This document shows positions 17,338 through 19,040 of a DNA stretch of 64,000 bases, one piece after another. Numbering within the stretch: position 1 is the first letter of the stretch; the number at the start of each line of letters is the position of its first letter. Location: positions 3,680,001 through 3,744,000 of the forward strand of contig OY762492.1 in the NCBI GenBank assembly GCA_963665845.2, read 5' to 3'. The notes under the pieces were generated by a model. The model had not been told where the DNA came from, searched no databases, and saw only the letters and a program-made list of their open reading frames with translations. Origin of the DNA: Candidatus Poribacteria bacterium. GTDB lineage: Bacteria; Poribacteria; WGA-4E; GCA-2687025. Made by a program: the position numbers and the translations under genes.

Positions 17338-17540
17338 GCTCTGACCTTGCGTCTTTAGTTGGGACATGTCGGCATGGGAACGCGGACGTCATCCCCGATG
17401 CCTCTGGATTCCCGCTTACGCGGGAGTATCTGTGTTCAAAGTCAATCATTTTGCGCTTTCCGTAGCGCCGAAAGTCGCCGCGGCGGATATTTTTCGGCAG
17501 TACCGAAGGAGCCGCCGCAGCGAGATTTCGGAAAGGGTTT

Positions 17541-18737
17541 TCATCTGCCTTGCGTCCTGTCGCTTGACTGCGGATCGGAAGACGCCGCCGCCGGCGCTTC
17601 TCCAGGCGCCGGCAGCGCCTCCCCGTCAGCCTCATCCAAAGACGCAGATGTTCCGGTCGGCGCCGCAACCGACGCATCGGAAGACCCCGACTCTTCCGAT
17701 GGCGCCGCAGCCGCTGTTTCATCCTGCTCATCAGAAGACCCCAACTCTTCCGATGGCGCCAAAGAACGCAACTCATCCAAGGGAACCCAAGGCGTTCCAC
17801 GCTTCAGAATCGCGTTCGCAAGAACCGCCAACTTCCGCATCACCGCCACAAGAGCCGCCTTCCCAGGCTTGCCGTTCTCCTTCAGACGCTCGTAAAACGG
17901 CTTCATGTCGGGGTTGAAACGAATCGCCGACATCGCCGACATATACAGAAGCGCCCGAACATCGCTCCGACCGCCCCAAATGCGGCGGCGACCAATCGAC
18001 TTCCCGCTCTCGCGCGCCCAAGGAGCCAAACCAAGCAGGGAACCGATCTCACGGCCGCTCCGATTGCCCAACTCCGGCACATGAAGAACCAGATACGCGG
18101 AAAGGAGATCGCCGAAGCCCGGAATGCTCTTCAACAGACGAAACCTCTTGTAAAGATCAGGCTTTTTCTTGATCAACGCCAGAGCTTCCCGCTCCGCCGC
18201 CTTGCGCTCCTCTTTCAGAGTGTCGCGGAGCTGTTCGGTCGCAGCCTCCGTCGGCTCGCCTTCCAGTAAATGCAGCCGATTGGTCCACTGAGTGATCGTT
18301 TTCACCAGTTGCATGCGTATCGTCATCCAGCGGCGAGCCTTTTTCACGACCGGATCGATCGGTTTCGTCGGTTCCAGATCGCGGCTCAGCCCATACAGCG
18401 CGAGCATCTTGGCGTCCAGCGCGTCGGTCTTGGCGCGGACGCTGTAGGAGCGGATGAAGTGATGGGGGTAGTTTGGATGACAGCGGCGGTAAGGGATCTC
18501 TGCTTCGGCGAGCAGCGACGCCAGTTTCCGCTCGTATCCGCCGGTCGGTTCAAAGACGACCATGTTGATGTCGGGGTAGGTCATCAGGAGGCGTTTGATG
18601 AACCGCTTGATGGCGCTCGCGGCGTTCTTGATGGTGGAGGTTTTCCCGCCGTTGATGGAGATTTCAAGCGTGTCTTTGGACATGTCGATTCCGGCGGCGA
18701 TTTTGTTGCTGTTTTCGTCGTGGCGTGGTATGTTCAT
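17541..18737 (-). CDS. IS110 family DEDD recombinase/transposase
   Basis: [23 protein letters not shown] (DEDD), [31 protein letters not shown] upstream of ATG 18737; acidic C-terminal tail. Confidence 0.96.
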
Positions 18738-18757
18738 TTTCGTTCTCCTTTCGGGAG

Positions 18758-18955
18758 AAAAGGACAAGAAGGACCGGCCTCCTTACTTGTATTCTGTAAC
18801 AAGAACACTGTATCTGTGCGGAGCCTCCGGTCTTTCTTGTCTTCTTTGCGCGGCTCTCGATACTCCCGCACGGCGCCGCTGCGAAGCAACGCGCCCAAGA
18901 CGGTCTGGAGTCTCACCGCGCTACCCCTTAAGTATGCGCTAACTCGAGGGGCAAG
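18758..18955 (-). ncRNA. Predicted IS110 bridge RNA
   Basis: 5' hairpin (18923-18952); target-binding loop with ACCGUCUU (18897-18904) and GCGGGAGU (18862-18869); donor-binding loop with CACAGAUAC (18810-18818) and AUACAAGU (18785-18792). Closing stems identified by eye; RNA ends are approximate. Confidence 0.85.
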
Positions 18956-19040
18956 ATCATCATACAAATGACGGCATGGATCGGCCGGCTGTCGCGCAAA
19001 TGAATGTCATCGCTTGTAGGCTGGCGACTCCAGTTAGCCT

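Follow-up and report, generated by a model that had tools for sequence, protein, structure and literature searches.

The IS110 element described here, like relatives in other phyla, sits between unlike cores, probably because a CT donor core enters a TT target core, and this arrangement is a lineage trait that sets it apart from the studied members of its family. The element has no core dinucleotide repeated at both ends: it carries TT on the left and CT on the right, and the two share only their second base. An earlier note had read this arrangement from the window copy, and it is now confirmed as common to the whole branch. In the window, by which we mean the entire 64,000-nucleotide stretch of Candidatus Poribacteria DNA analysed, positions 17425-18966 on the minus strand are, judged from sequence, an IS621-type IS110 element whose recombinase is intact and whose left end resembles a bridge RNA (Table 1). 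Apart from a shared core, it displays the sequence hallmarks of the IS621 group, with handshake bases as expected in the target loop and variable in the donor loop. The TT-left and CT-right arrangement within CGTC-1 repeats very probably arises because a bridge RNA guides a CT-core circle into a TT-core target, with the top strand fixing the product. The element alone is ordinary; its interest lies in the lineage-wide core mismatch and in a named candidate residue.

Table 1. Features of the element and its split target, in positions of the window
Feature	Position	Strand	Basis or remark
Left half of split CGTC-1 repeat: left target and TT target core	18967..18975	-	Identical at 10/10 left junctions in own genome
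Right donor, first 5 nt of element	18962..18966	-	Complemented by RDG
Predicted circle-junction promoter, -10 hexamer TATGAT	18959..18964	-	Similar boxes in homologs
5' stem-loop of predicted bridge RNA	18922..18953	-	Fold; helix 1 with two-sided changes in 11/12 pairs
Target-binding loop of predicted bridge RNA	18848..18921	-	Fold and covariation
Left target guide (LTG)	18896..18904	-	Carries U at core position 8; position 7 does not match the target
Right target guide (RTG) and handshake bases	18861..18869	-	G opposite core position 8; G in 96/96 parsed loci
Donor-binding loop of predicted bridge RNA	18763..18841	-	Fold and covariation
Left donor guide (LDG)	18810..18817	-	C at core position 8; 8/8 identical to left donor and core C
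Right donor guide (RDG)	18785..18792	-	Contiguous here; bulged in relatives and IS621
IS110 recombinase, 398 aa	17541..18737	-	PF01548 and PF02371
Two hairpins in non-coding right end	17452..17526 (bounds approximate)	-	Right end folds at -43.3 kcal/mol, without shuffle control
Predicted circle-junction promoter, -35 hexamer TTGACT	17440..17445	-	TTGAC conserved in homologs
Left donor and CT donor core, element right end	17425..17433	-	Identical in 9/9 full copies
Right part of split CGTC-1 palindrome and CCA tail	17405..17424	-	Agrees with CGTC-1 description in the available part of PMC3733652

Both junctions read on the minus strand as the earlier note gave them, with GCCGTCA (18975-18969), TT (18968-18967) and TGTAT (18966-18962) on the left and ACAGATA (17433-17427), CT (17426-17425) and CCCGC (17424-17420) on the right. 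The right end of the proposed span 17425..18968 holds and the left bound moves inward by the two core bases, since the top-strand rule assigns TT to the target rather than to the element. The non-coding left end comprises 229 nt upstream of the gene against 116 nt after the stop codon, the layout of the IS110 group. Joining the element ends in silico places TTGACT and TATGAT 17 bp apart as a sigma-70 promoter predicted from sequence only. No circle junction turned up in contigs from four DNA-type runs and an RNA run (contigs drop rare forms) or by read mapping. The mapping also revealed no empty allele that could be assigned uniquely, and what looks like an empty site can stem from other repeat copies; the donor sequence is therefore a reconstruction. 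Contigs of RNA run X9 cover the element region, a run that has no silent-stretch control and is not counted as expression. One X9 contig links the left half of a repeat with the target loop's inner stem at window position 18899, which may reflect template switching or another organism.

The target repeat is identified by its sequence features as a CGTC-1 REP, of the family that includes dRS3. The dRS3-like palindrome proposed at first reading is thus borne out and refined, as the consensus of 777 copies has the CGTC tag, the 8-bp stem starting AT, the 4-nt loop and the CCA tail of CGTC-1, a group of which dRS3 is a member in the part of PMC3733652 available. Genome-wide the repeat numbers about 1,000 copies, one search pattern giving 997 and another 1,066. 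In the window, 18 palindromes are intact and 19 sites are target-like, where roughly 25 related palindromes had been estimated before.

The host genome (G000) contains nine full-length copies, namely the window copy, six at 90-93% identity to it and two that are divergent and frame-broken, plus one truncated copy. That the six other close copies are only 90-93% identical counts against a claim of present activity. When insertion sites were compared, all nine full copies and the truncated one lay at the same point of the repeat and none at an unrelated site; left junctions end GTCA-TT in 10/10 cases, and right junctions of full copies read ACAGATA-CT in 9/9. Copy c8 (G000:C1:1531952-1533505) is a mosaic in which the left end and most of the target loop match the window subtype and the donor loop and gene match that of c9. 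The truncated copy c7 (G000:C1:469927-470372, 446 bp) ends at an internal CT site joined to the right arm of the repeat and is likely a partial-circle insertion; the internal CT site has 6/9 donor matches, tied best among 80 internal CT sites.

Folding of the 229-nt left end (-92.2 kcal/mol, z -4.36, with 0/200 shuffles as good) recovered the 5' hairpin and the two internal loops described earlier, and the guide order was confirmed, with LTG at 18904-18897, RTG at 18869-18862, LDG at 18817-18810 and RDG at 18792-18785. Rfam returned no matching family for this left end. Covariation of the stems among homologs, a test that the earlier note had named, was found as two-sided changes in 29/44 pairs of a 16-sequence alignment, a number reached by 0/500 shuffles; as the structure came from this very alignment, the slid control is lenient, and the helix closing the donor loop does not vary and is uninformative. 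Guides also change together with targets and donors across copies and homologs, as natural variation: 180/208 guide positions match their own targets (shuffled mean 129, maximum 166 in 10,000 shuffles), the LDG covaries with the donor across homologs, and in copy c9 two right-donor bases and the matching RDG bases are altered together. The predicted RNA has the LTG-RTG-LDG-RDG order, with guides covarying with target and donor, of an IS621-type bridge RNA.

At core position 8 the LTG carries U in 12/12 TT elements and C in 4/4 same-donor CT elements, and the RDG position-8 G is invariant in aligned relatives. Identity of the LTG to the left target of the window copy is 6/8, as first claimed, and the position-7 mismatch is seen here and in 8/9 full copies overall. 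Handshake bases of the target loop can pair with the incoming strand at positions 7 and 6. The 11-nt complement to the post-exchange junction that had been pointed out is real in the window copy; as a general trait it was rejected, with only two handshake bases conserved and the last two bases differing in most relatives. The donor-loop handshake base is G6 in c8, c9 and 15 aligned relatives and A or U in the subtype of the window copy, where this base (position 6) pairs with the donor instead of the target and thereby departs from the relatives.

The recombinase retains its catalytic residues, D18/E63/D105/D108 of the DEDD RuvC domain and S244 as the Tnp serine, by alignment to IS621 in the numbering of PMC11208158. 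Its best solved relatives, both by sequence and by predicted fold, are ISCro4 (9t56) and IS621 (8wt6), and its His87 aligns with IS621 N84. An acidic disordered tail of about 70 aa is predicted with pLDDT < 50; this low-complexity segment (window 17541-17760, minus strand) contains an internal duplication, and the tails of the closest ENA relatives differ in sequence.

A first genome-collection scan with a single protein as query found no relative. The homolog search, in which genome-collection scans covered 6/64 and 13/64 parts, gave at least 170 loci outside the host genome, of which 128 had a right junction whose LDG and RTG matched; a left junction could be read as well in 100 of them. By left and right core these 100 loci comprised 75 CT/CT, 22 TT/CT and 3 GT/CT. 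Four rows were dropped before counting, three mis-parsed with CT junctions visible (L032, L121, L153) and one of ambiguous register (L052), leaving 96 parsed loci with 75 CT/CT, 20 TT/CT and 1 GT/CT; L110 is a 21st TT locus. The 21 TT loci come from 12 other genomes, eight of Chloroflexota, two of Nitrospirota, one of Binatota, and G120, and 80 metagenome loci held no robust TT case. Guide statistics were taken from the alignment, because the best-match LTG of the parser was wrong for L126, L129 and L141. A quick tree groups the query with two close ENA proteins, the 20 TT loci and five same-donor CT loci on one branch (SH-aLRT 96), with SH-aLRT the only support measure and the query a long, compositionally odd branch. 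Ten of the 12 genomes, searched with position 8 left free, gave 87 TT, 1 CT and 1 AT left junctions (n=89) and 75/75 CT right junctions; the CT and AT exceptions are short stubs without a recombinase. With the host genome added, 97/99 left junctions over 11 genomes are TT, junctions within one genome not all being independent events. Position 7 is common to target and donor in 20/20 TT loci versus 6/75 CT loci, and pairing of the RTG with donor position 6 occurs in 20/20 TT loci versus 19/75 CT loci. A distant IS110 locus with Asn, L004 in genome G011, has an LTG matching a GT-core left junction at 9/9 positions and a CT right junction, and may be a second, independent unlike-core case. L135 and the regions G180:C1 143-178 kb and 535-540 kb, in a Nitrospirales genome, show head-to-tail and clustered copies, some at sites without a palindrome arm.

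With junctions, guide-to-DNA matches, guide covariation and intact catalytic residues observed, the remaining steps of the proposed mechanism are drawn from IS621 and CazIS110. As in those two systems, the joined element ends would form a promoter from which the bridge RNA is transcribed. The two left guides would read their respective core letters, the target T with a U and the donor C with a C, and each right guide would offer a G able to pair with C or wobble with T both before and after exchange. Cleavage of the top strands 3' of the core would leave each core on its left arm, and the bottom strand would be repaired or templated by the top one. Insertion of a CT circle at a TT target would in this way yield TT on the left and CT on the right, and excision would hand each core back to its owner; because each core returns with its left arm, the cores would never need to match. 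The mismatch that the earlier note attributed to tolerance of a TT target core is real, and a special DNA-DNA tolerance becomes unneeded if the top strand carries the core along with its left arm. Target and donor both have A at position 7, so position 6 instead of 7 probably sets the direction.

Published work, cited for the parts of each source available to us, bears on several of these steps. In IS621, top-strand cleavage falls between positions 9 and 10 and each core goes with its left arm, and bottom strands are cleaved between 9* and 10* (PMC11208158 section 12); from the pairings in section 8 we infer that the bottom cut lies between positions 5 and 6, so that a 4-nt heteroduplex with mismatches would be normal. 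PMC13626964 expects a bottom strand that is unligated and mismatched, and CazIS110 integration is favoured more than 1,300-fold through the top strand (bioRxiv 2025.10.25.684509). Unlike cores are not generally tolerated, because CT versus GT cores abolish cross-reaction in IS621. The portion of the Durrant supplement consulted (PMC11208160) has one row with a TT left junction for an unrelated element amid neighbouring CT rows, and sporadic unlike-core use may therefore be widespread.

A broader reading, which we advance tentatively, is that a large branch of bridge recombinases with His escaped the matched-core rule: the change from N84 to His, together with the G wobble in both right guides, would admit a CT donor to TT targets, the handshake would have moved from position 7 to 6, and colonisation of CGTC-1 repeats in at least three phyla besides that of the host would have been enabled. 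The N84-equivalent is His in the query, in 20/20 TT loci and in 5/5 nested CT loci, and Asn (61) or Asp (9) in the 70 other CT loci; among aligned protein hits, His-bearing clusters account for 110 of 118. In IS621, N84 reads the base opposite the core C (PMC11208158 section 8), and the same source links it to a preference for C/G over A/T at core position 8. His in place of N84 may make both purines acceptable to the protein opposite position 8, the weakest step, drawn from residues of one branch. His is insufficient as evidence of cause, because His and TT share this one branch and five parsed plus two unparsed His loci use CT.

Those nested His loci with CT speak for a reading that comes close to an even chance of being right, namely that the mismatch is real and requires no special protein, any IS621-type enzyme joining CT and TT through the G wobble once the LTG carries U, and His87 being a neutral marker of the branch. 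Such a reading is favoured by position 8 lacking a protein contact on the top strand and by matched TT cores working in IS621 (both from section 8 of PMC11208158, in the part available), as well as by the single TT row of the Durrant supplement. It is opposed by the 70 Asn/Asp loci, among which no robust TT case occurs (L052 being ambiguous), and by the N84-linked preference at position 8 stated in PMC11208158.

The guides themselves speak to whether sites are chosen mainly by the palindrome hairpin or by protein contacts, with guides only loosely read, as reported for ISPpu10. The LTG calls for CC at positions 2-3, which 8/10 insertion sites have versus 30% of repeats (p 0.0015, for sites that may not be independent), and the two atypical targets fit the variant LTG of copy c1. 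Relatives L133 and L135 moreover lie at sites without the arm, and guides covary with targets, so that we find hairpin-led choice improbable even with the LTG mismatches, the stem-loop requirement of ISPpu10 (bioRxiv 2026.03.19.712850, in part) and the right arm being kept at 10/10 own-genome sites versus 780/1,065 in the background (p 0.044). That cores matched at insertion, by a hit on a rare CT repeat variant or a CT junction, and that mutation, or gene conversion templated by the abundant repeat, later turned the left junction into TT is very unlikely indeed: CT/CT is the rule (75/96 parsed loci), one left-end stub carries CT in the same context and the repeat is abundant enough as a conversion template, but core position 8 is T in 766/766 intact repeats of the host genome and C in 0/766, 97/99 left junctions are TT in 11 genomes, and the LTG itself encodes U there, and C in sister elements with CT targets.

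Guided insertion of a CT circle into a TT target places the element close to several known systems. To IS621 (PMC11208160, PMC11208158, as far as available) it is alike in its RuvC DEDD and Tnp serine, left-end RNA with LTG-RTG-LDG-RDG, predicted junction promoter, REP target and target-loop handshake bases; protein identity is about 28-30%. It differs in pairing a TT target with a CT donor, in having position 7 common to target and donor, in His for N84, in an unbulged RDG and in its acidic tail. The claim of a donor near-identical to that of IS621 holds for positions 1 and 8-14 and fails at positions 5-7. ISCro4/IS622 (PDB 9t56; bioRxiv 2025.05.14.653916) is the best sequence and fold match, with a similar 14-nt target and donor logic, and the available part of its preprint applied a filter that required cores to match and positions 6 and 7 to be unlike. 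In the accessible part of PMC11208160, Durrant et al. made their core changes in the target and the donor alike and took the core to be a sequence repeated at the element ends. ISPpu9, ISPpu10, ISPa11 and ISRm19 likewise have all copies at a fixed point of a host palindrome (PMC1525189; bioRxiv 2026.03.19.712850, both in part); ISPpu10 differs in its CT cores and Pseudomonas REP, and a CGTC-type target is possible for ISRm19, which was compared without its junction sequences. The Neisseria Nf1/MDA phage IS110 transposase shares the dRS3 repeat family and an IS110-family enzyme, and uses a conserved CT in dRS3, in the loop of the given subtype sequence, according to the part of PMC7058167 consulted; the present element, unlike it, cuts the left stem arm at TT and has no phage genes. 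Top-strand-dominated transfer in CazIS110-1 (bioRxiv 2025.10.25.684509) would explain core inheritance here, and half-match recombination by IS621 (bioRxiv 2026.08.31.748434) would, through one-sided donor matches, explain odd junctions in the host genome; neither source, in the parts available, reports unlike target and donor cores. The IS1111 group was ruled out, as guides lie upstream of the gene in IS110 order and not downstream in reversed order.

Bridge RNAs, REP targeting by IS110s (PMC1525189) and an IS110 enzyme using dRS3 at CT (PMC7058167) are already known, as far as these partly available sources go. The literature searched, mostly outside subscription journals and exclusive of ISfinder, together with the Durrant supplements and with PMC11187229, PMC13396178 and bioRxiv 2026.08.14.744561 as further comparisons, contains in the portions available no report of an unlike-core lineage or of this branch.

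Bridge editing is designed on identical donor and target cores, a CT preference and unlike position 7, and the branch persistently breaks the first and third of these. The matching-core rule for the design of editing tools is thus likely not obligatory, and multiplexed designs may meet cross-reaction between CT and TT cores. The branch offers a ready test of the core as true homology versus a merely guide-read position, and names one residue to swap. Near-uniform TT-left and CT-right cores over about 180 junctions are evidence, from genomes, for a product dictated by the top strand, and bear on the dispute between dual-strand and top-strand exchange. Should the His branch truly have escaped the matched-core rule, moving the change into other enzymes would enlarge the range of targets open to bridge editors, and orthogonality between CT and TT cores would not hold. 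A pipeline in which the core is taken to be a sequence repeated at both ends would put the ends of such elements in the wrong place.

Several further loci of the host genome carry pieces of the element or of its recombination sites. An orphan bridge-RNA-like stretch at G000:C1:2788105-2788335 has its own guides and a shortened inner stem, without a recombinase gene or junctions. At window 59047-59073 (plus strand) a perfect left-donor-plus-CT 9-mer is fused to a repeat right arm with no IS attached; the 9-mer seems to belong natively to a truncated fragment of HNH coding sequence on the opposite strand, and the fusion looks like one-sided donor-mimic recombination, for which the partner junction was not identified. 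At G000:C1:523373-523387 (plus strand) a repeat left half and TT are joined to a native TGTATG within a gene fragment; ATT precedes this motif in three paralogs, which fits a right-donor-only half-match. The reciprocal partner of this junction (C1:523382) was not found, and flank matching gave no support to its forming one large element with copy c6. A 12-nt remnant between TT and CT within a repeat (G000:C1:3524960-3524971), and repeats one base short with ACT before the right arm at G000:C1 630785 and 2683231, are possible excision scars. Tandem WD40-repeat genes (window 19093-22825) adjoin the element, and a DNA methylase-HNH-like gene at window 59225-60733 has dozens of paralogous matches genome-wide.
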